From IMG/VR virus record IMGVR_UViG_2802429231_000003: a stretch of 8,242 bases of DNA. One strand, 5' to 3'. Position 1 is the stretch's first letter, and each line of letters begins with the position of its first letter. Shown piece by piece: positions 293 through 8,242 of this stretch. Under the pieces are notes generated by a model. The model was not told where the DNA came from and searched no databases. It was given only the letters and a program-made list of their open reading frames with translations. The DNA is from a virus (lineage: Duplodnaviria > Heunggongvirae > Uroviricota > Caudoviricetes). A program made the position numbers and the translations under genes.

Positions 293-525
293 AGATGCGG
301 CGCTTCTTGATGCCGCCCGACGGTCTGGCAGCGGGCGCGAACGCTGTTTTGCACGAAATAGCTTTTCCGTGCGCTCCATTGAACATCCCTTCTTTTCGCT
401 GATTTTAGCTTCCTGTTGTTCTGGTTGTTTGCCGGATGCCTGATTTTACCAGATACCCGCCAGGCGAGCTTTCCGGCTTTCAAACCTGAAATTCAGGAAA
501 AATCATCTCTATATATACAAAAAGG

Positions 526-814
526 TGTTGTCCCTGTTGTCCCGGTTGTCCCAAAAAATGTAACCAACTGATTTTATTGAATCTTATTTTTAATTGTGGG
601 ACAACATGCCAGCATTGTGGGACAACATGCCCTGTTTCTGTGTTGTCCCGGATTGTTGGCTGATGAATGTTGTCCCAAAACTTCCTGACGTTGTCCCAAA
701 ATCGCCGCATGTTGTCCCAGAAACACGCTATGTTGTCCCATAATTATCTGATGATATGTATAAATAACAGTAAGTTAGTTAAAAAACGTCTTCATTGGGA
801 CAACCGGGACAACA
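526..814. repeat. Iteron array, putative replication origin: 12 copies of TGTTGTCCC/GGGACAACA flanking A+T-rich spacers
   Basis: Direct copies at 526-534, 535-543, 545-552, 641-649, 668-676, 690-697, 710-718, 731-739 (about 21 bp periodicity in the central block); inverted copies at 598-606, 619-627, 797-804, 806-814; A+T-rich stretches at 553-596 and 740-790; lies immediately 3' of the replication-protein gene, as in SaPI/PICI and P4 origins. Confidence 0.75.
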
Positions 815-834
815 TCTTTACGCGCACGTATGAA

Positions 835-2976
835 TTATTCGGCTTCTTCTTCCTCCTGTTCAGGTGCGAAAAGCAGGATATATGCACGCTGCCGGGCGTT
901 ATTCTGATGTTTCAGGCGCGGTGTTCTGCCCTGCCAGCCCCTGCCGCTGGTGGGTTTCTTAAGCATTCCCGCATCATGCAGTACCTGCGCCACTGCGTCC
1001 TTGTTAAAGCCTCTGGCAACGTGTTCTTTAAACGGTGCCGGAAGCACGTAAAACAACATCGGGTCATCATACCGTTCGCCCTTGTCCCGGTAGCCCATCA
1101 GTTCACCGATGTGGAGATCTCGCGGATCATAATCCACGGGTGCAAATTTGCTCATGCCCCAGGCGTTAAGAAATGCCACTGCCTGTTCTGCAATCTGCTG
1201 GTGTTCTTTGTTCCCGGTGCCGAACTCTTTCACCCAGGCATTAAAGCTGCGCTGTACCGCATCCCGGCACCCTTGCGCATCCCATCCGGTGATATGGCCT
1301 GACAGCACCAGCGCCGCTTCCATGATGGCGAATCGCTCCCCGACGCGGTGGACCTGCTCGCCGTAGTTGTCCGGGATAAGCCCGCGCCAGCGTTCCCTTG
1401 CGGCTTCTGTGGCCTCCCGCGCCGCCTGCTGGTGGTCTGCCAGCCAGCGCACCCATTCACGCCCTGCGGTGCCATGATGCGCCATACAGGCCGCTCTGAG
1501 CGCATCAGCATGAGCTTTACCGGACGGCAGCCCGTGAAATTCCGTGGCCTTCTCCAGGGGCACATTAAGCAGGCGCACCAGTTGCCCCGCTTTGGGCTTC
1601 ATGCCTGCGGCTGCAAGAAAGGTTTCTATGTCCATTTCTCCGGTACTGATGGCGACAGTTCGCCAGCGTTTAAGCTCCCGGTTACCGCCTTCCTTCGCGC
1701 CCTGTAGTTTCCCCACACCGTTAAACAGCGTATAGGCAGACGTTGCCACGGCGCGGGCGTCACTGCCCTGACCAACCTCATCCAGGGGCATCAGGCCGTC
1801 ATTGTGCGCCTGTGCCTCGTTAGCGATACCCAGCGCAGTACCGTACCAGGTGAGGCGCAGTAAATCCGGGTTACCGTACAGACTGCTGGCGATGTTTGCT
1901 GTGGTGGTTTTCCCGGCGCTGGACTGCTGGAAGAAATGGACGCCGAAGCCATCCGCACCCACCAGCCCGACCAGCGGCGCGGCAAGTGCTGCCGCCACGC
2001 CCAGCATCATGGAAGGATTACCCGCCACCAGCGTGGCGACGTTCTCCCGCCAGCTCTGCGCCGTACCTGCACAGGTGTAACCGGAAGCCGTCGCGCTGTG
2101 ACCGTAAAACAGGACCTTCCGGCCCGCCTCGCCGATGATTTCCCCGTCCGGCATGATGTACGCGCCGTGCTGCCATCCGGTCAGGCTGGTGATGTGCCAG
2201 AGTTCCCCCGCGCCACTGCGCAACAGGTGATCGGCAAGGATGGCGCGAAAGTTGTTTTTAGCCGTGACAGAAAGCCCACCAGCACGTAACCGCGACCAGC
2301 CTTCATGCTCGCCAGTATCACGCATGGGGATCGCTTCGGTGTGCGCTGTACGCGCGCCTGCGGGCTTCCAGCGCAGAACAATATACCGCTCGGACTCATC
2401 CGCACCGATGCCCACCACCTCAAGAGGATCACACAACCACTGACCGGGGCGGGTAACTTCCCCGGTCTGCTTATCCATCTTTGGCGTTACCCAGTACAGA
2501 CCGTCAGGGCGGGCATCCACACAGGGGGCCAGCTCATCCACCGGCGCAGGTTTGCCCTCTGCCCGTTGTACCTCTGCCACCAGACTTTCTTCCCCGCGTT
2601 CGTGCTGTTCGCGTATCCGGTTCAGGTAGTCGCGCCAGTCTTCCGGGTGCTGGTCAGGTATCCCCTGGTATAACTTCGCTTCCTGTACGCCCGCCAGCGC
2701 CAGCTTTTCAGCAATGGCGTTAATCTGAATGGGCTTAATATCTCCGGCATGATAGAGGCGGGCGCACTTACGCCCGTTATCAATAATGCGCAGGTTCGCC
2801 AGGTCTGCCAGTTGCTTTGGCCCCAGCCAGACAGGCGGCGTTTTATCTGCGGCAACTTTTAATCCCCAGTCCTCTTCCCATGTTTTAGCGTGAGCGAAGG
2901 CATCAGCCCCGGCAAAGATAACCACCTCAACATGTTTATCTTTCGGTTGATGCTTAAGGTTCGGTGCGTTCTTCAT
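835..2976 (-). CDS. Replication initiator, primase/helicase-like P-loop NTPase (713 aa); DUF927-type replication protein as found in P4-like/PICI elements
   Basis: Long intact ORF; Walker A-like motif QQSSAGKTT; RBS GGGAGG about 9 nt upstream of ATG; start overlaps upstream gene stop (ATGA); iterons directly downstream; acidic C-terminal tail. Family assignment is from recalled sequence character, not a search. Confidence 0.8.
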   Translation of the reverse strand: MKNAPNLKHQPKDKHVEVVIFAGADAFAHAKTWEEDWGLKVAADKTPPVWLGPKQLADLANLRIIDNGRKCARLYHAGDIKPIQINAIAEKLALAGVQEAKLYQGIPDQHPEDWRDYLNRIREQHERGEESLVAEVQRAEGKPAPVDELAPCVDARPDGLYWVTPKMDKQTGEVTRPGQWLCDPLEVVGIGADESERYIVLRWKPAGARTAHTEAIPMRDTGEHEGWSRLRAGGLSVTAKNNFRAILADHLLRSGAGELWHITSLTGWQHGAYIMPDGEIIGEAGRKVLFYGHSATASGYTCAGTAQSWRENVATLVAGNPSMMLGVAAALAAPLVGLVGADGFGVHFFQQSSAGKTTTANIASSLYGNPDLLRLTWYGTALGIANEAQAHNDGLMPLDEVGQGSDARAVATSAYTLFNGVGKLQGAKEGGNRELKRWRTVAISTGEMDIETFLAAAGMKPKAGQLVRLLNVPLEKATEFHGLPSGKAHADALRAACMAHHGTAGREWVRWLADHQQAAREATEAARERWRGLIPDNYGEQVHRVGERFAIMEAALVLSGHITGWDAQGCRDAVQRSFNAWVKEFGTGNKEHQQIAEQAVAFLNAWGMSKFAPVDYDPRDLHIGELMGYRDKGERYDDPMLFYVLPAPFKEHVARGFNKDAVAQVLHDAGMLKKPTSGRGWQGRTPRLKHQNNARQRAYILLFAPEQEEEEAE

Positions 2977-3215
2977 TCCACCGCCTCCCTGCGGGTGGCA
3001 GCCAGTGCCACGGCATCGCGGGTAAACTCCCGGTGAAAGCGATCCACCGGATATACGCAGGGGTGAGAGTAGCCATCACGGACATATGTCACGCGGTTGA
3101 ACTGATTCGCGGTAATCACTACCGCACACCCGGATTTATCGCGCCATTTATCACCGGGGCGAATTTCGGGTAAAGCCTGCCCGCTGGCAGGAACGCCAGT
3201 TATTTTCTTGGACAT
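2973..3215 (-). CDS. Hypothetical small protein (80 aa), translationally coupled to the replication gene
   Basis: ORF with AAGG RBS about 11 nt upstream; stop overlaps primase start (ATGA); no recognisable domain. Confidence 0.6.
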   Translation of the reverse strand: MSKKITGVPASGQALPEIRPGDKWRDKSGCAVVITANQFNRVTYVRDGYSHPCVYPVDRFHREFTRDAVALAATRREAVE

Positions 3216-3227
3216 TATTTTTTCGCC

Positions 3228-3425
3228 TTATGCTGCTGGTGGTGTAACGGTAAATCCGGCTATTTTTGCCGCTTCCAGAAAACCTTCCAGGTTACTGACA
3301 AACTCGTTTTTCTGTAGCGTATAGCCGCCTGTGGCTGTGCCTTTTTCCACGTTAACCAGGACAGGTCCGGTGAAGTCCGGTCGCGCCGGAATGGTAACTG
3401 TGAAGGTCAGGGAGTGATTATGCAT
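3228..3425 (-). CDS. Hypothetical small protein (65 aa)
   Basis: ATG at 3423-3425 preceded by GGAGG; ATG overlaps the upstream gene stop (ATGCATAA). The longer track ORF to 3491 would need a non-ATG start and overlap the upstream gene by about 70 nt. Confidence 0.6.
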   Translation of the reverse strand: MHNHSLTFTVTIPARPDFTGPVLVNVEKGTATGGYTLQKNEFVSNLEGFLEAAKIAGFTVTPPAA

Positions 3426-3960
3426 GGTCTGCCTCCACATACGCGACACCCGCCACATCAAGCGCCTGTTTAAAACGGCAAAGCATTTCACGGCGTTCGC
3501 GGTACAGGGCCAGCACGAAGGGATCGAGTGTGGCTTCGATATCGGCAGGATAGCGACGGACGAAAGGCAGAAGGACGACGCCCTGACAGCGGTGTGGCGT
3601 GGAGGATTTCACCTGGTCAGCCAGCATATTCACCAGGTCATGTAACAGCCCGGTAAGCGGCTGGATCATGTCACGGGGCAATGTATCGGCCACCAGCGCC
3701 TTTGCCAGCGTGAGGCAGTATTCCAGCGTCAGGCTTTCATCAGGCCAGTACTCTGACAGATCGGATGCGGTATTGTCCGGCAGGGGAAGCGCCGTATCCG
3801 CATGGTATGCCGCTGTCAGTGCCTCCAGTGAGGTGACAAGGGATTTGCACATCGCCCGGTGTTCAGTGCGGCTGTGGTATTCCATCAGCCTGCACACCAG
3901 CGCGGCGCACTCACCTGCCAGATGAAACAGGTCAGCGCCTGCGGGGATCGGCTTATTCAT
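3418..3960 (-). CDS. Hypothetical protein (180 aa), member of the replication operon
   Basis: C-terminal 180 codons of the 619-aa track ORF; ATG at 3958-3960 preceded by a G-rich RBS and overlapping the upstream gene stop (ATGAATAA); the remaining 5' part of the track ORF is low-complexity antisense of the plus-strand genes. Confidence 0.65.
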   Translation of the reverse strand: MNKPIPAGADLFHLAGECAALVCRLMEYHSRTEHRAMCKSLVTSLEALTAAYHADTALPLPDNTASDLSEYWPDESLTLEYCLTLAKALVADTLPRDMIQPLTGLLHDLVNMLADQVKSSTPHRCQGVVLLPFVRRYPADIEATLDPFVLALYRERREMLCRFKQALDVAGVAYVEADHA

Positions 3961-4150
3961 GATGCGCCCCCGTAGCGGGCAGACGTCCAGCGAAGAAGCA
4001 GACACTTTCCCGCGCAAGCTGGCGGCGGGCTTCATGCTCGCTATCTGCGGCGATATGGTGGATTTTTGCGGTGATAGTCGGGCAATCGCGGCGAACGGCA
4101 GCGATAAGCCAGATGAATCGCGGGTGTGACGGGGTAAGGGTAGCGACCAT
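3953..4150 (-). CDS. Hypothetical small protein (65 aa), first gene of the replication operon
   Basis: ATG at 4148-4150 with GAGG about 9 nt upstream; stop overlaps next gene start; position analogous to kil-like first genes of the P4 left operon (analogy only). Confidence 0.55.
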   Translation of the reverse strand: MVATLTPSHPRFIWLIAAVRRDCPTITAKIHHIAADSEHEARRQLARESVCFFAGRLPATGAHHE

Positions 4151-4314
4151 AGCGGTGGCCTCGTGAGTAGGTTTATTAACCTCACCAGACCGCTGCTAAA
4201 CGGGGTGGTGAGACGTAACAGGGTTAGCAGACCGGCACTCACGAAACCGGCAGGCGCGAACGCCTCCCCGTTACGCCCCACCATAATACGGACGCAACAT
4301 GGCATTTTACGGAC

Positions 4315-4346
4315 AAAAAAAGACCGCGTTACAGAATGGTCGCGGT
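4315..4346 (-). terminator. Putative intrinsic terminator in the leader of the replication operon (minus strand)
   Basis: Minus-strand RNA ACCGCG-(12 nt loop)-CGCGGU followed by C and seven U (top-strand A run 4315-4321); lies between the divergent promoter region and the first operon gene. Confidence 0.45.
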
Positions 4347-4404
4347 TGTCCGCGCGAGTATTCAGGCTGCTAAACCCGGCCAGTGGATTTACACCAGCGG
4401 GAAA

Positions 4405-4434
4405 AGCATAGCGCCGGGCGGCAGTGTCAGGCAA
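4405..4434 (-). promoter_or_regulatory. Candidate sigma70-type promoter for the leader/replication operon
   Basis: On minus strand TTGCCT (top 4434-4429), 18-nt spacer, TATGCT (top 4410-4405); each hexamer is only a 4/6 match. Confidence 0.2.
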
Positions 4435-4445
4435 GGGATTTTTTT

Positions 4446-4480
4446 GTGATGTAATCACTTTCATCAGTACGTTACTGATG
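4446..4480. promoter_or_regulatory. Two adjacent operator-like dyads upstream of the plus-strand two-gene module
   Basis: GTGAT-gta-ATCAC (4446-4458) and CATCAGTA-cgt-TACTGATG (4462-4480), the latter with perfect 8-bp arms; just upstream of TATGAT (4482-4487) and the RBS AAGGAGAGG. Confidence 0.35.
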
Positions 4481-4512
4481 TTATGATTTACATCAACAAG
4501 GAGAGGCAAATT

Positions 4513-4794
4513 ATGTCTGCTGTTGAGTTGATGAACCGACGGATTCAGATTGCGGATAATGCTTTCGCCATCATCCGCATCTTGCAGGTTGACCCGTCCA
4601 TTCTCGGTAGCCAGCATCTGTATAAATACAGTCTGGCCTATATTGTGGATGGCGTCTGCGTGATGCGCTACGACAACGAACGGGGAAATGGCGACCACAA
4701 ACACATTGGCGATCGTGAATTTCCGGTCACGTTCACCAGCATACAAGACCTGATAGCCAGCTTTCAGGAAGATATCAACCATCTGAGGAGATGA
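4513..4794 (+). CDS. Small protein (93 aa), possible toxin-like partner of a two-gene module (tentatively TumE/DUF6516-like)
   Basis: ATG at 4513 preceded by AAGGAGAGG; motif RYDNERGNGDHKH; followed 4 nt later by an HTH gene with its own RBS. Family assignment is from memory of the motif and unverified. Confidence 0.65.
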   Translation: MSAVELMNRRIQIADNAFAIIRILQVDPSILGSQHLYKYSLAYIVDGVCVMRYDNERGNGDHKHIGDREFPVTFTSIQDLIASFQEDINHLRR

Positions 4795-4798
4795 CATT

Positions 4799-5158
4799 AT
4801 GAGAGTGTTAACCGTCAGGATTATGTCTATCGCCGATGCTTTCCAGACAACGATGGAAGATGCCACTCGCGCTATGTCAGGCGTGGTTGTTGGATCTGAT
4901 TTGATATTCCCCAGCGTTGAGCAGCTTGCCAAAACGATGCTTGCGCCCAATCGCTGGCAAATTATCAGAGTGATGAAAGGTGCAAAACCCGTTTCTATTC
5001 GTGAGCTGGCCCGTCTGGTAAATCGCGATTTTCGCGGTGTATACAACGATGTACAGGCACTGTTGAACGGCGGCGTTCTGGATCGGGATGGCGATAAAAT
5101 CGTATTACCGTATGACCGCGTACACATTGAGTTTAATTCGGACGACGCCGCAGCGTAA
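4799..5158 (+). CDS. Winged helix-turn-helix DNA-binding protein (119 aa), putative regulator/antitoxin-like partner
   Basis: GGAG RBS 9 nt upstream; HTH-like segment PVSIRELARLVNRDFRGVYNDVQALL followed by a wing-like segment; strong terminator downstream. Confidence 0.7.
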   Translation: MRVLTVRIMSIADAFQTTMEDATRAMSGVVVGSDLIFPSVEQLAKTMLAPNRWQIIRVMKGAKPVSIRELARLVNRDFRGVYNDVQALLNGGVLDRDGDKIVLPYDRVHIEFNSDDAAA

Positions 5159-5177
5159 CGGTACGAGGCGTTTATCG

Positions 5178-5209
5178 GGGCGTGGATATCCTCTGCGCCC
5201 TTTTTCTTT
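5178..5209 (+). terminator. Intrinsic terminator after the plus-strand two-gene module
   Basis: 9-bp stem 5178-5186/5192-5200 (two G-U wobbles), 5-nt loop, then TTTTTCTTT. Confidence 0.65.
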
Positions 5210-5273
5210 GTCCGTATGTCAACTTTTGACAGGTTGAGGCCAGACACGGGCAAGCTCTTATTCTGAATGCTTA

Positions 5274-6098
5274 TCATTGAACTACCTCCAGGCGACGGGC
5301 TAACCAGCGCTGAGACAGGCGCAGTAATTCTGTCTTGCGCTGGTGGTAGTCCTGCCTCAGTTCTATTAGCGTGATATTGGTCTGCTCAAGATAAGAAAGG
5401 TGATCGAGTTGTTCCTCGCTCATATGGTCGCGGGCTTCGCCGGTGATGCCGTTCGCCTGCGCCCACTGTTTCGCTGTCATTCCACCCAGCACGATCCGCG
5501 CCAGCATGTTCGATTCAGTTGTGTAGTGATGTGGTTGTGTGGCCTTGCCCTGTTCCTGCCTCACCACTTCCAGCGCGGCGCACATCGGCTTAAAGTAACT
5601 GGCGGCGGTGATACGGGCCTTAAGTTCTTTGCGCAGCGCAGCGGCTTTTAACGGGGCTTCCTGCTGTAATGTTTCCTCGCAGTGAATGAAGTAACGACGA
5701 ACGGCGCGGCCCTGCTCGTTGCGTTCGACCATCGCCAGCTCTTTAGCCATATTCAGCGAAAGCAAATACTCCCGGCTTCGTCTGTCCCCACCGCGTCTTG
5801 TTTCCCACGCCTTTCCATCATGGTTATTATTTGAGCTTTGATTCCTGAAATTTGAGGAATCAAAAAGGGTGTAGTCACTGTCAGCAATGAAACCATATTC
5901 CTCAATGCGGCCCTTAATCCATGTGGAAAAGTCATTTCCCACACCCAGCGCGGCATGTAACTCCTTTGCACTTACCACGCTGGCAGGCTGGCTACCGATA
6001 ATGCCGGAAATAACCGGGATGAGTTCGGCAAAATTATTCTGGTTATGGTTTTCAGGGTGAGCGATGCCCTGACCGTGAAGGCCATTAATTAATTTCAT
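5274..6098 (-). CDS. Phage antirepressor, AntA/AntB N-terminal domain family (274 aa)
   Basis: Segment YLLSLNMAKELAMVERNEQGRAVRRYFIHCEETL matches the conserved core of AntA/AntB antirepressors as recalled; AGGA RBS; 14 nt downstream of the preceding gene on the same strand. Confidence 0.75.
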   Translation of the reverse strand: MKLINGLHGQGIAHPENHNQNNFAELIPVISGIIGSQPASVVSAKELHAALGVGNDFSTWIKGRIEEYGFIADSDYTLFDSSNFRNQSSNNNHDGKAWETRRGGDRRSREYLLSLNMAKELAMVERNEQGRAVRRYFIHCEETLQQEAPLKAAALRKELKARITAASYFKPMCAALEVVRQEQGKATQPHHYTTESNMLARIVLGGMTAKQWAQANGITGEARDHMSEEQLDHLSYLEQTNITLIELRQDYHQRKTELLRLSQRWLARRLEVVQ

Positions 6099-6112: not shown

Positions 6113-6544
6113 TCAGGCGGCGTTCTGGTTATCCGGGTACATCATGAGGATGCTTTCGATAGTCTCCGGGGTAAGGCTCCAGTAGCCACCAGTACTGGCA
6201 CACTGATTGACCAGCTTAATGACCTTCATCACGTCCTCACGGCAGGCAAAGCGGTAGCGAAGATGTGCCCCTATACCATCGGCATTGGCTTCTTCTGAAC
6301 GCGCCAGGCAGATATCAAGGCGGCGCTCCAGTTCACTGGCGTAATTGCGGCCTGATGAAAGATGGCAGTGGCGCAGAATATCGTTTTCAGTCCAGCCACC
6401 AGCACCAGTGCAAAGCATATAAACGCGGGCGCGGTGCTTCTTCGGTGTGCGTCTCGCTTGTGTGCGGCTGGTGGTGGGGATAACATCAGACGGGCGAATA
6501 TCTGTGTTAGCCGCCTGCTGTTCGGGGCGGTTTTCTTTTTTCAT
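6113..6544 (-). CDS. Hypothetical protein (143 aa), co-transcribed with the AlpA-family gene
   Basis: ATG overlaps the AlpA gene stop (ATGA); basic N-terminal region; no recognisable domain. Confidence 0.6.
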   Translation of the reverse strand: MKKENRPEQQAANTDIRPSDVIPTTSRTQARRTPKKHRARVYMLCTGAGGWTENDILRHCHLSSGRNYASELERRLDICLARSEEANADGIGAHLRYRFACREDVMKVIKLVNQCASTGGYWSLTPETIESILMMYPDNQNAA

Positions 6545-6753
6545 TGCGCCACCTCGCCGCGTGATTCAAATACACGATCATTTATCCATTTATTAACTTC
6601 GTCTTCAAACCAACCAACACGGCGTAGGCCAATGCGAAATCCTCGCGGAAATTCGCCAGCGTTAATCATCTCCTGAAATGCGCTATCTGATTTAATACGT
6701 AAAATCATTTTTACTTCTTTTTTGAGAAGGATCTTTCTTTCTTCTGATGTCAT
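6541..6753 (-). CDS. alpA: AlpA/Vis-family phage transcriptional regulator (excisionase-like HTH), 70 aa from ATG
   Basis: Pattern ILLKKEVKMILRIKSDSAFQEMINAGEFPRGFRIGLRRVGWFEDEVNKWI resembles the AlpA-family HTH; the track ORF extends to 6771 only with a TTG start, so the first ATG (6751-6753) is preferred. Confidence 0.7.
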   Translation of the reverse strand: MTSEERKILLKKEVKMILRIKSDSAFQEMINAGEFPRGFRIGLRRVGWFEDEVNKWINDRVFESRGEVAQ

Positions 6754-6816
6754 TTGGTTAATCTCATTCAATACCGATTAATTCCGGCGGTGTAGGAATA
6801 CTGGCATGATGAGATA

Positions 6817-6890: not shown

Positions 6891-7619
6891 TTAAGCCACT
6901 TTTGATGGGGTGCGATCGATTGGGCAAGCGATTTTTTCGATAGCTTTGGCTGTCGATTCAACAAATCCGTAACTGGTTTTAAGCTCTGTAATTATGGCCT
7001 GCTGGTTAACTCTGGTGCCATTATTGTTAGGGTCATACTCTGCCCATTCACAATTCCTTATCCTGATAGCCTGATACAGAGGGTCTCTTTCTACGCCTCC
7101 GATAAACTTACCCAAGTGAAGAGGATACGATTTTTTTAAAACCTCAATATCTCTTTCTAGTGCGGTAATTTTATTCTTAAGTTCGGATATCTCTTGTGAC
7201 TCTTGATTTGTACGCGATGGCGGCTGTAATCCCACCTCGTAGGGGTGGTTAATTATAATGGCATTATATTCTGTGAACTCATTTTCAACCCAAGTCCAGA
7301 TGTCCTTTGCCAGAAAGTTAGCATCTACTATATGTGTGTTGATATTAATATTATCATTTTCAACTAAGCTTAGGATATCAATTGGGAGATCCCATGAAGG
7401 GTCAGAATATGTGTAAGCTTTCAGTGGGATAACTTCTTTCAATTTAATAGCTTGACATATAATTTCTTTAAATGATGAAGCTTCTTCATCGCTAATGTAG
7501 CCACTGATAATATTTGGATCAAGAGTATCGTACTCACCGGATAAGCCTGCCATAACTAAAGCTGCTTGCTCTAAAGTCACAATTCTGAGTCGTTTAATAT
7601 GGAAAGGTAAATCAATCAT
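6891..7619 (-). CDS. Hypothetical protein (242 aa) in a markedly A+T-rich gene; candidate accessory/cargo gene
   Basis: Intact ORF with GAGG RBS about 8 nt upstream; composition visibly much more A+T-rich than flanking genes; predicted coiled-coil-like segment (ESQEISELKNKITALERDIEVLKK); no recognisable domain. Confidence 0.7.
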   Translation of the reverse strand: MIDLPFHIKRLRIVTLEQAALVMAGLSGEYDTLDPNIISGYISDEEASSFKEIICQAIKLKEVIPLKAYTYSDPSWDLPIDILSLVENDNININTHIVDANFLAKDIWTWVENEFTEYNAIIINHPYEVGLQPPSRTNQESQEISELKNKITALERDIEVLKKSYPLHLGKFIGGVERDPLYQAIRIRNCEWAEYDPNNNGTRVNQQAIITELKTSYGFVESTAKAIEKIACPIDRTPSKVA

Positions 7620-7919
7620 TACGCCACCTCACGCCCTCTATCATGGAGGCCGCGCCAACCCGCAGAGGTGTACGGGAATTCGGGAGCTACCCTAGACGCG
7701 GCTTATTCTGTTACCGTCGGTTATCTTCGGTTTTGCCCATGATAGATCGTTTTCTGAACGCTTGCATTGCAAGACTGTGTGAATAATCAGCTTGTGTTTT
7801 TATACAGCTCTAATTCCTCTCATTCCTGTTGCTAGGGTCACTCCCGTGGATGCGGTTTCCACAAATTCCCCCCACCAGCGCATCAACACAATACGCTTTT
7901 CAAGATAGTTACTCCGGTT

Positions 7920-8242
7920 ATCAATTTGCGCGTAAGACCTCGCCCAATCGGGCGGGGATATAAGCGCGGTAACTGCGTAACATTTTTTGACCTTCGTCAA
8001 TATGGCTTACATTTTTCAGTGTATTTTGTAAGCCTATGAAACGCGCCTATAAATACAGATTCTATCCAACACCCGATCAGGTTGAGCTTTTGGCTCAAAC
8101 GTTCGGGTGTGTGCGTTTTGTCTATAACTCGATCCTGCGTTGGCGCACCGATGCGTACTACGAACGGCAGGAGAAGATCGGCTATACACAAGCCAGCGCT
8201 CGCTTAACAGCACTGAAAAAAGAGCCAGATTTTGCCTGGCTC
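7920..8242 (+). mobile_element. Left end of an IS200/IS605-family insertion sequence (tnpB-only type or tnpA lost), truncated by the window edge
   Basis: TnpB N-terminus begins at 8036; subterminal hairpin CGCCC-AATC-GGGCG at 7941-7954 (extendable to 7938-7957) about 80 bp upstream, consistent with an IS605-family left-end structure; left boundary approximate. Confidence 0.5.
8036..8242 (+). CDS. tnpB: IS200/IS605-family transposase accessory protein TnpB (OrfB), N-terminal 69 codons, partial
   Basis: Translation MKRAYKYRFYPTPDQVELLAQTFGCVRFVYNSILRW matches the conserved TnpB/OrfB N-terminus; in-frame stop at 7988-7990 upstream; ORF runs to the last base, so it is absent from the complete-ORF track. 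Confidence 0.8.
   Translation, partial: MKRAYKYRFYPTPDQVELLAQTFGCVRFVYNSILRWRTDAYYERQEKIGYTQASARLTALKKEPDFAWL

Follow-up and report, generated by a model that had tools for sequence, protein, structure and literature searches.

We analyzed an 8,242-nucleotide (nt) stretch of DNA from a Caudoviricetes virus record (IMGVR_UViG_2802429231_000003), hereafter the window, in which five tightly packed genes (g1 to g5) run along the minus strand. An initial annotation, made from the letters alone, had described four small open reading frames (ORFs) of 65, 180, 65, and 80 aa ahead of a primase/helicase-like gene, with overlaps of 8, 8, and 4 nt and one 12-nt gap. Each of these particulars was confirmed on the sequence, and the single tightly packed unit ends, as had been proposed, in a primase/helicase-like gene, a replicase of the DUF927/phrog_1139 type. 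Two flanking features lay outside the coordinates of that annotation or had gone unremarked: an upstream P4-type RNA leader (4411..4201) and a probable iteron origin downstream (520-820). The element that carries them is best filed as an enterobacterial island of the phage-inducible chromosomal island (PICI) type that uses a P4-type RNA immunity front end. The features of the locus are collected in Table 1.

Table 1. Features of the replication operon, its leader and origin, and the rest of the window.
Feature	Position	Strand	Details
g1	4150..3953	minus	65 aa; Icd / P4 Kil-like; first translated gene
g2	3960..3418	minus	180 aa; without named family
g3	3425..3228	minus	65 aa counted from ATG; phrog_340 family
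g4	3215..2973	minus	80 aa; DUF4222
g5	2976..835	minus	713 aa; replicase
g1/g2 junction			ATGAATAA; 8-nt overlap; sequence reading
g2/g3 junction			ATGCATAA; 8-nt overlap; sequence reading
g3/g4 junction			12-nt gap (ggcgaaaaaata); sequence reading
g4/g5 junction			ATGA; 4-nt overlap; g4 stop overlaps replicase start
Promoter-like site	4434..4405	minus	-35 TTGCCT 4434..4429; 18-nt spacer; -10 TATGCT 4410..4405; position of P4 PLE
isrK/seqA-like leader with upstream C4 target sites	4411..4317	minus	Rfam isrK and c4-a1b1
C4 / P4-CI-type antisense RNA	4288..4201	minus	RF01695; 79.3 bits vs gathering score 45; E 9e-15
Downstream C4 target region	4199..4157	minus	UUAGCAG 4199..4193; ACUCACGA 4168..4161
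Probable replication origin	520..820	both orientations	about 14 copies of TGTTGTCCC; 4 x 21-bp array 667-765
DNA matched in other replicase genes	2576-2986		L010 7084-7494; L011 7084-7447
Integrase C-terminal stub	7917..7800	minus	P4-type integrase-like
int-alpA RNA	7702..7635	minus	RF02996; 43.1 bits vs gathering score 35.8
242-aa orphan	7619..6891	minus	GC 0.37-0.39; AT-rich
AlpA	6771..6541	minus	PF05930; E 2e-8
143-aa orphan	6544..6113	minus
AntA (Bro-network protein)	6098..5274	minus	PF08346; E 9e-24
TumE toxin gene and 119-aa helix-turn-helix partner	4483-5158	plus	PF20126, E 4e-14; PF25212 HVO_A0114, phrog_11214

The way in which the five genes are joined sets them apart within the window. 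Overlaps of stop and start codons by 8 nt occur at g1/g2 and g2/g3 and at no other place among minus-strand ORFs of at least 40 aa in the window. GGAGG-like Shine-Dalgarno sequences lie 6-8 nt before the starts of g1, g2, g3, and g5; those of g2, g3, and g5 fall inside the last codons of the preceding gene, that of g1 falls in the leader, and g4 is preceded by a weak AAGG only. For g3, listed as an 87-aa frame from an upstream GTG, we took the ATG form since its homologues begin MHNH. Related islands show this junction type (GGAGG, 5-6 nt, C-ATG-NN-TAA/TGA) two to five times per locus in their corresponding module, and the left operon of P4 has it twice; the proteins that end at such 8-nt junctions terminate in His-x-stop. 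Both the Shine-Dalgarno-CATGNNTAA junctions and the gene plan (Icd, variable ORFs, phrog_340, DUF4222, replicase) are kept in 13 related islands. The arrangement is not a chance pattern, and the gene anatomy suggests that translation is coupled from g1 to g5. A consensus scan of the coding strand between 4150 and 835 found no credible internal promoter or terminator.

Comparison with the orthologous metagenomic locus L009 gave ratios of nonsynonymous to synonymous substitution (dN/dS) of 0.50 for g1, 0.38 and 0.13 for the N- and C-terminal modules of g2, 0.11 for g3, 0.33 for g4, and 0.09 for g5, synonymous change between the two loci being near saturation. By this measure all five ORFs are under purifying selection and the small frames are protein-coding. 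A further open frame of 619 aa (3418..5277, minus strand) begins 4 nt inside the stop of the AntA gene, crosses the TumE/TumA toxin-antitoxin pair in antisense and then the RNA leader, and merges into the g2 frame; it is unusually long and probably spurious.

Directly upstream of g1, a P4-type immunity leader spans 4434..4157 on the minus strand. Its promoter-like site scores 8/12, under the cut-off of our consensus scanner, and because the scanner did not list it the assignment draws on alignment with P4. When the leaders of the window, P4 (L005), L009, and a Pseudocitrobacter faecalis island (L014) were aligned, the -35 (CTTGCC in the alignment) and -10 (TATGCT) hexamers proved to be conserved in all four, as were leader hairpins, a hairpin followed by a T-run, the C4 RNA, and a Shine-Dalgarno sequence 8-9 nt before the first ATG. 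Rfam models for isrK (4398..4317, 41.6 bits, gathering score 50) and c4-a1b1 (4411..4359, 40.4 bits, gathering score 46.7) match the first part of the leader below threshold, and the isrK-like part ends in a terminator-like hairpin with a T7 run (4346..4315). The C4/CI-type RNA that comes next matches RF01695 over its full length (model positions 1-87) and folds into the expected two-hairpin structure (-46.9 kcal/mol). The P4 genome, scanned with Rfam, returned an isrK-type match and then a C4 match (the CI immunity RNA) in the same order before the kil/eta frame. Relative to P4, L009, and L014, the window leader has a 4-nt gap between its two downstream targets. Stops inside the leader close the g1 reading frame, which rules out a long Eta-like ORF running through the RNA in that frame.

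Two side observations concern the leader. The 61 nt between C4 and g1 (4140-4200, minus strand) can form a hairpin of their own (-22.3 kcal/mol, GGUCU.GGUGAG with CUCAC.GAGGCC), which would also sequester the g1 Shine-Dalgarno sequence in cis; in the alignment, judged by eye, the leaders of P4, L009, and L014 too have a hairpin at this position, with other stem sequences. Separately, the Pfam model Phage_ASH (PF10554) matches residues 22-85 of the P4 'cI ORF', which is the translated CI RNA region (L005 8168-8584), as well as the middle of a 291-aa gene call in L009 (4267-5142) that runs across isrK and C4. The 'Ash protein family', or at least some of it, thus appears to model a conserved RNA gene and not a protein.

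The C4 RNA is complementary to sites on both of its sides. Its loop, UCGUGAGU, forms an 8-nt Watson-Crick match with ACUCACGA in the downstream target region, or a match of 13 nt (4169..4157) when G-U pairs are counted, and this target overlaps the g1 Shine-Dalgarno sequence GAGG at 4162..4159, ahead of the g1 ATG at 4150. Beyond the C4 loop hairpin, the single-stranded CUGCUAA finds its complement UUAGCAG twice, at 4199..4193 and at 4373..4367, a 7-nt match on each side of C4; the upstream loop target, UACUCGCG at 4360..4353, is weaker. Measured against dinucleotide shuffles, the predicted duplex with the downstream 60 nt is unusually stable (-32.9 kcal/mol versus -22.9 +/- 3.4; z -2.9; reached by 2 of 1000 shuffles), and the duplex with the upstream leader gives z -2.7, its observed value being reached by 16 of 1000.

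Covariation is a stronger argument for pairing than duplex energy. In the window, loop a' (UCGUGAGU) faces target ACUCACGA and the second segment, b' (CUGCUAA), faces UUAGCAG. The corresponding pairs are UCCUGUGAA with UUCACAGGA and UUCUCAC with GUGAGAA in P4, CCUUUGAC with GUCAAAGG and ACGCCAA with UUGGCGU in L009, and UCCGUAUGCG with CGCAUACGGA and again ACGCCAA with UUGGCGU in L014. Four elements therefore carry four loop sequences and, since L009 and L014 share ACGCCAA, only three variants of b'. Loop/target complementarity and its geometry are nevertheless kept in all four, and the a2 site abuts an AGGAGG or GAGG 8-9 nt from the ATG. When the RNAs of the window, P4, L009, and L014 were each paired with the downstream targets of all four, the most favourable energy always belonged to the cognate combination; for the upstream targets, the cognate pairing of P4 is P4's weakest. 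The covarying loops and targets fit a working antisense system with element-specific immunity.

In the immI region of P1 and P7, an operon leader gives rise to the C4 antisense RNA that controls the same operon; its targets flank the RNA, and the downstream one lies at the ribosome-binding site of icd, whose translation is coupled to that of later genes. Rfam family RF01695 was built on P1 and P7. In P4 and P1 alike, the leader is transcribed constitutively, and from its transcript comes a stable small RNA that pairs with flanking sites in later transcripts; the first ORF is left untranslated, transcription ends prematurely, and the replication genes stay silent. The window shares with the immI region (c4 RNA, icd, ant1/2) a leader-borne C4, two-sided targets, and an icd-type first gene. 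It differs in what stands behind the icd-type gene, namely accessory ORFs and a replicase instead of an antirepressor, AntA being encoded upstream in a separate unit.

A close parallel is the left operon of P4, which is ordered PLE, seqA, CI RNA, seqC, kil/eta, epsilon, orf151, orf106, alpha, crr. The CI/seqA/seqC mechanism and the standing of isrK as a seqA homologue have been described (PMC4825925), and Kil/Eta translation prevents termination in P4 (PMC10111431). Common to the window and P4 are an isrK/seqA-like element (sub-threshold in the window), a C4/CI RNA, a target at the Shine-Dalgarno sequence of a Kil-like first ORF, and small ORFs chained by 8-nt overlaps, with the replicase last and iterons directly downstream; the P4 chain itself reads kil/eta, 8-nt overlap, epsilon, 8-nt overlap, orf151, small ORF, alpha, iterons. 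The analogy with P4 drawn in the initial annotation was apt in this respect, all the more since g1 shares 47% identity with residues 74-131 of the P4 'cI ORF', in the kil/eta reading frame. The specificity sequences of RNA and targets differ, however, and the window has neither an open Eta-type frame through the RNA nor a replicase related to alpha, its own being of the DUF927 type and without BLASTP similarity to alpha. In addition, AlpA does not adjoin the leader but is separated from it by the 143-aa gene, AntA, and the inverted toxin-antitoxin pair. Under stricter tests the window fell outside the P4 group because it lacks epsilon (PF25738), an alpha-type primase, and DUF5375 (orf106). Nor are sid, psu, and delta in the window, where a mobile element interrupts the sequence past the origin; relatives have ProQ/FinO, PerC, and capsid genes at that place.

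Another parallel is the isrK-orf45-anrP locus of Salmonella prophage Gifsy-1, in which a leaky terminator lies in an isrK-type leader, a short ORF is controlled by RNA, and expression of the next gene needs translational coupling through an overlapping stop and start (PMC4825925). The isrK-type leader, the RNA-controlled short ORF, and the stop/start coupling would have their likenesses in the window. In Gifsy-1, however, IsrK activates in trans, and the locus yields an antirepressor and AntQ, not a replicase; in the window, a sub-threshold isrK match precedes a full C4 RNA.

The first product of the operon could be placed in a family. The g1 protein matched NCBIfam NF033153 (phage_ICD_like; E 1.1e-20, 73.4 bits against a curated cut-off of 25) and PHROG families phrog_1743 and phrog_6928, while a PDB sequence search gave nothing meaningful. 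On these matches it is an Icd/Kil-like protein, of a family named for inhibition of host cell division.

The second product, g2, had no match in Pfam, NCBIfam, PHROG, or PADLOC, and a tblastn search of 50,697 phage records found nothing. A word-index search returned eight homologues, and a HMMER profile search of 1.84 billion cluster representatives returned 95 clusters, most of them matching a single module. The protein is laid out as an N-terminal module (about aa 1-120), modeled by AlphaFold2 as a four-helix bundle whose helices have confidence (pLDDT) values of 80-90, and a C-terminal module (about aa 125-180), modeled as strand-helix-helix-strand with pLDDT 65-76. Matches to the first (profile positions about 3-130) are stand-alone proteins of 135-155 aa; matches to the second (about 125-185) are stand-alone proteins of 60-87 aa or are joined to other partners. 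Three islands (L010-L012) have the N module alone as their second gene, with an 8-nt overlap with Icd, and in L009 the two modules lie 345 nt apart with the isrK-C4 unit in between. Because the modules occur separately elsewhere, g2 can be read as an in-frame fusion of two small-ORF modules, a rare one by this comparison; the same N-C fusion is found in one relative (P0004, 53% identical by BLASTP). Pfam and PHROG scans of 35 g2 relatives revealed only Ash/Icd-type fusions, in a few members. A search for function by fold was uninformative, Foldseek against the PDB giving generic four-helix bundles only (FAT domain, designed proteins), all at E>0.07. The gene occupies the slot of P4 epsilon, second in the operon and overlapping the Kil-like gene by 8 nt. 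The initial annotation had named epsilon among the P4 ORFs that precede alpha, but no relation of the small ORFs to it was found: none of g1-g4 matched Pfam PF25738, and for g2 there was no BLASTP similarity and an hhalign probability of 0.1%. We infer that g2 is a variable accessory cassette.

The two genes before the replicase keep more constant company. The g3 protein matched phrog_340, a family of unannotated function, at E 6e-16, and g4 matched Pfam DUF4222 at E 1e-21. As in the window, a phrog_340 gene directly precedes DUF4222 in 9 of 13 related loci (L001, L006-L009, L014-L017). DUF4222, in turn, adjoins the replicase start in the window and does so likewise in 10 of the 12 loci in which the replicase N-terminal domain was found; the exceptions are L009, where a 73-aa ORF intervenes, and L013, with a gap of about 200 nt. 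The profile hidden Markov models (HMMs) used to locate phrog_340, DUF4222, and the replicase N-domain were built from few members, and the comparative sample is small, since a profile search of genome contigs with the DUF4222 alignment yielded five loci only. The model of g4 is a small SH3/Tudor-like beta-barrel that lacks the C-terminal helix of about 20 residues found in most DUF4222 members. For DUF4222, tblastn against phages found nothing, a fold search of BFVD returned uncharacterised small barrels only, and the match to P4 orf151 was confined to 19 residues (hhalign probability 56%). PDB sequence searches with g3 and g4 gave nothing meaningful, and a PADLOC scan of g1-g4 gave no match. 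Matches of g3 in phiP27 and a Klebsiella prophage have unannotated early or accessory ORFs as neighbours and were uninformative on function. Co-occurrence, then, is what points to g3 and g4 as conserved companions of the replicase gene. A 121-aa ORF in E. coli relatives (L001 7119-7484, minus strand) is a tandem duplication of the phrog_340 domain, giving those islands three phrog_340 copies in a row before DUF4222. Where the initial annotation had found no recognisable domains in the four small proteins, this holds for g2, which has no named family, and no longer for g1 (NF033153), g3 (phrog_340), or g4 (DUF4222); the profile-HMM and structure-prediction searches that it had suggested supplied families for these three and a generic four-helix bundle for the N module of g2.

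The g5 protein was identified as a replicase by matches to PF06048 (DUF927; E 8e-48), to phrog_1139 'DNA primase' (E 1e-135), and to the staphylococcal replication protein deposited as 'Pathogenicity island protein' (PDB 8tch; E 4e-14); it had no BLASTP match to P4 alpha at E<1. It comprises a shared N-terminal domain (aa 1-130), a DUF927 core of the superfamily 3 (SF3) helicase type, and a C-terminal region. Among the islands the replicase cores vary (DUF927, D5_N/DUF5906/Pox_D5, AAA_25/RepA). Over its first 400 nt, however, g5 shares 88% identity with the D5-type gene in L010 and likewise with the AAA_25-type gene in L011, a similarity that ceases at the domain boundary. To judge from these alignments, one N-terminal domain has been recombined onto three different cores. 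A PDB sequence search with this domain gave nothing meaningful, and a 'TOPRIM' label that NCBI attaches to a relative was not borne out by a Pfam scan of the first 140 aa of the replicase, which had no match. Immediately 3' of the replicase stop, in the position of the P4 crr repeats behind alpha, lies an iteron region that adjoins the most AT-rich stretch of that half of the window. Iteron origins of Gram-negative PICIs (GN-PICIs) have been mapped directly 3' of pri-rep (PMC6092414), and by this analogy the region is likely to be the origin of replication.

The remainder of the window fits a GN-PICI (EcCICFT073, cfPICI type), an island built of four zones, Integration, Bro, Replication, and Late. 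Apart from the toxin-antitoxin pair, the island genes in the window are co-oriented and follow the Integration, Bro, Replication layout, and the window shares with GN-PICIs an int gene (here a remnant), the int-alpA RNA, AlpA, AntA, an Icd/'Ash' region with C4 and an isrK-like match, pri-rep, and iterons. Matches to C4 and isrK in GN-PICI Bro zones were reported previously (PMC10111431). The replicase core also resembles Rep of staphylococcal pathogenicity islands (SaPIs; PDB 8tch). Two differences from GN-PICIs stand out, the lack of a late/packaging zone in the window and an integrase truncated by an insertion sequence (IS). The genes between Icd and the replicase (g2, phrog_340, DUF4222) receive no discussion in the cited GN-PICI papers.

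Relatives of the island were found in E. coli, Salmonella, Erwinia, Pseudocitrobacter, Mangrovibacter, Serratia, and Kluyvera. Their plan is int, a variable gene, AlpA, AntA in some, Icd, variable ORFs, phrog_340, DUF4222, and replicase, and many go on into ProQ/FinO, PerC, and capsid genes. Six of them (L001, L006-L008, L010, L011) have the same gene chain and no C4 match, and in L001, L006, and L008 a divergent YlcI/YnfO-type gene stands upstream instead of the C4 leader. In L009 the isrK-C4 unit lies inside the gene chain, and the 291-aa 'Ash-domain' call there merely reads through the RNA gene. Because close relatives keep the chain without a C4 match, the RNA gate would be an exchangeable front end.

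Upstream of the leader, the toxin-antitoxin pair, of the TumE-TumA type described previously (PMC10584680), sits inverted between AntA and the RNA leader, in a slot that holds a YlcI/YnfO-type regulator in several relatives; the contig gene call for TumE begins at 4513, and a terminator-like hairpin follows the pair at 5177-5201. The int-alpA RNA lies between the integrase stub and the next gene, and its motif occurs in L001, L006, and L015 too. The 242-aa and 143-aa proteins that flank AlpA had no match in Pfam, NCBIfam, PHROG, or PADLOC at default thresholds. In relatives the slot of the 242-aa gene is occupied by a protein kinase, DUF6387, or other genes, and this int-alpA slot may be a hotspot for variable accessory or defence genes. 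Within AntA, the last third of the protein (aa 178-263) matched the PADLOC candidate defence family PDC-S22 at E 2.4e-9.

Mobile sequences border the island at both ends. From 7918 onward, the window matches an IS200/IS605-family InsQ/TnpB element of E. coli at 100% identity, and because that element begins at 7918 the integrase is truncated; a 66-aa ORF at 8000..7800 is a chimera of which only about 7917..7800 resembles an integrase C-terminus. At the other end, the first 70-80 nt match, at 92-96% identity, a sequence that 2,321 of 5,426 complete E. coli genomes carry, chiefly on plasmids and with as many as 15 copies, and positions 1-80 are probably the end of a mobile element. An identical metagenome contig (L002) continues for about 500 nt to an IS66-family transposase at its end. 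Three independent samples yielded this same 8-kb arrangement.

Our findings make it likely that g1 to g5 constitute the early replication operon, under immunity control, of a GN-PICI that carries a P4-type immunity leader. Gene anatomy, family assignments, the RNA and its complementarity, covariation, and conservation of layout are observed; RNA processing, translational repression, polarity or Rho-type termination, and the function of every protein are inferred. Transcription would start at the PLE-like promoter (about 4434..4405) and cross the isrK/seqA-like leader and then the C4/CI-type RNA (4288..4201). By analogy with P4 and P1, the small RNA would be excised from the leader and accumulate. 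Its loop UCGUGAGU and the segment CUGCUAA would then pair with two upstream and two downstream sites in later transcripts. By covering the g1 Shine-Dalgarno sequence, the downstream pairing would keep g1 untranslated, and the chained g1-g5 message, free of ribosomes, would be exposed to premature (Rho-type) termination, leaving the replicase off and the island quiescent. Once the RNA block was overcome, ribosomes entering at g1 would be passed from gene to gene down to the replicase, which would then fire the iteron origin at 520-820. The obligatory co-translation proposed in the initial annotation would gain a purpose in this scheme, in which the overlapping junctions would carry the decision made at the g1 ribosome-binding site down to g5.

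Several observations weigh against this interpretation. Both the isrK and the c4-a1b1 matches fall under their Rfam gathering scores; the upstream loop target is just 8 nt long and needs G-U pairs; and a lone 13-nt match with G-U pairs is not rare in itself, the case for pairing depending on position and on covariation in four elements only. An override of the kind attributed to P4 'Eta', from an upstream late promoter, cannot work here, the g1 frame being closed in the leader. To judge from the relatives, the RNA gate is exchangeable and not intrinsic to the operon, and with mobile-element sequence at both ends and a truncated integrase the island may be inactive.

That last point can be carried further, to the view that the locus is a remnant without activity: the island would be decaying between insertion sequences, and the operon would be conserved in sequence only through the recency of that decay. 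The integrase has been cut to a stub (7917..7800) by the tnpB element, the first 70-80 nt are multi-copy mobile sequence and an IS66 transposase closes L002, the window has no late or packaging zone, and a toxin-antitoxin pair has been inserted in inverse orientation. Yet all five ORFs, the C4 RNA, the targets, and the iterons are intact, g2-g5 show purifying selection against L009, and the arrangement recurs in three independent samples, so that we hold decay to be rather improbable; operon, RNA, and origin are intact although the island may be immobilised. It is far less probable still that the small ORFs are not genes at all but chance frames in a long 5' untranslated region of the replicase. 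Three of the four are no longer than 80 aa, and the spurious 619-aa ORF shows that long frames do arise here by chance, but three of the four also have family matches, their dN/dS values lie at 0.11-0.50, and start/stop junctions and Shine-Dalgarno sites are kept in 13 loci from several genera.

Two other proposals concern what the small proteins do. The initial annotation had suggested helper interference or host takeover, which is possible for g2-g4. In a stronger form, the small ORFs, g2 above all, would be helper-phage manipulation factors (anti-repressor, derepression, or interference) doing the job of P4 epsilon, and the operon would be equally one of takeover and replication. The position of g2 in the epsilon slot speaks for this, as do the variable content of that slot between islands, as expected of helper-specific factors, and the occurrence of the g2 N module as a stand-alone four-helix bundle in the same slot elsewhere. 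On the other hand, g2 has neither sequence nor profile similarity to epsilon, no function in PADLOC or PHROG, and a fold matching generic helical bundles, and we think such a role unlikely, compatible as it is with an RNA-controlled replication operon. Alternatively, g3 and g4 would be replication-accessory proteins that act with the replicase N-domain, for example in origin loading or initiation control. The frequency with which phrog_340 precedes DUF4222 (9 of 13 islands) and DUF4222 precedes the replicase (10 of 12) is in keeping with this, as is the finding that the replicase core changes while the first 130 aa stay, at 88% nucleotide identity; the SH3/Tudor-like barrel predicted for DUF4222 is a docking fold in helicases such as PcrA/UvrD. 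We regard this as a tentative possibility, with less than an even chance of being correct. A bolder combination, built on co-occurrence and predicted folds, would see the stretch from Icd to replicase as a cassette array of junction-swapped variable genes, some of them helper-specific derepression or interference factors, with phrog_340 and DUF4222 docking on the shared 130-aa N-domain as an initiation-control adaptor; we consider this doubtful. If it were true, the phrog_340 and DUF4222 adaptor would let satellites exchange their helicase/primase engine.

Returning to the RNA-controlled replication operon, its design is already known from satellite P4, and the window is a complete but ordinary example of it; the current picture of satellites is unchanged and its annotation refined. 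The points that may be new are the covariation of immunity specificity, the modular g2, and the trio of phrog_340, DUF4222, and the replicase N-terminal domain that is kept across different replicase cores, the comparison having singled out these last three as uncharacterised companions of satellite replicases. One small RNA would act at one ribosome-binding site, and the gene overlaps would spread the block over about 3.3 kb. The compensated differences between RNAs and their targets fit distinct immunity specificities, and they bear on whether satellites coexist or cross-repress one another in one cell.

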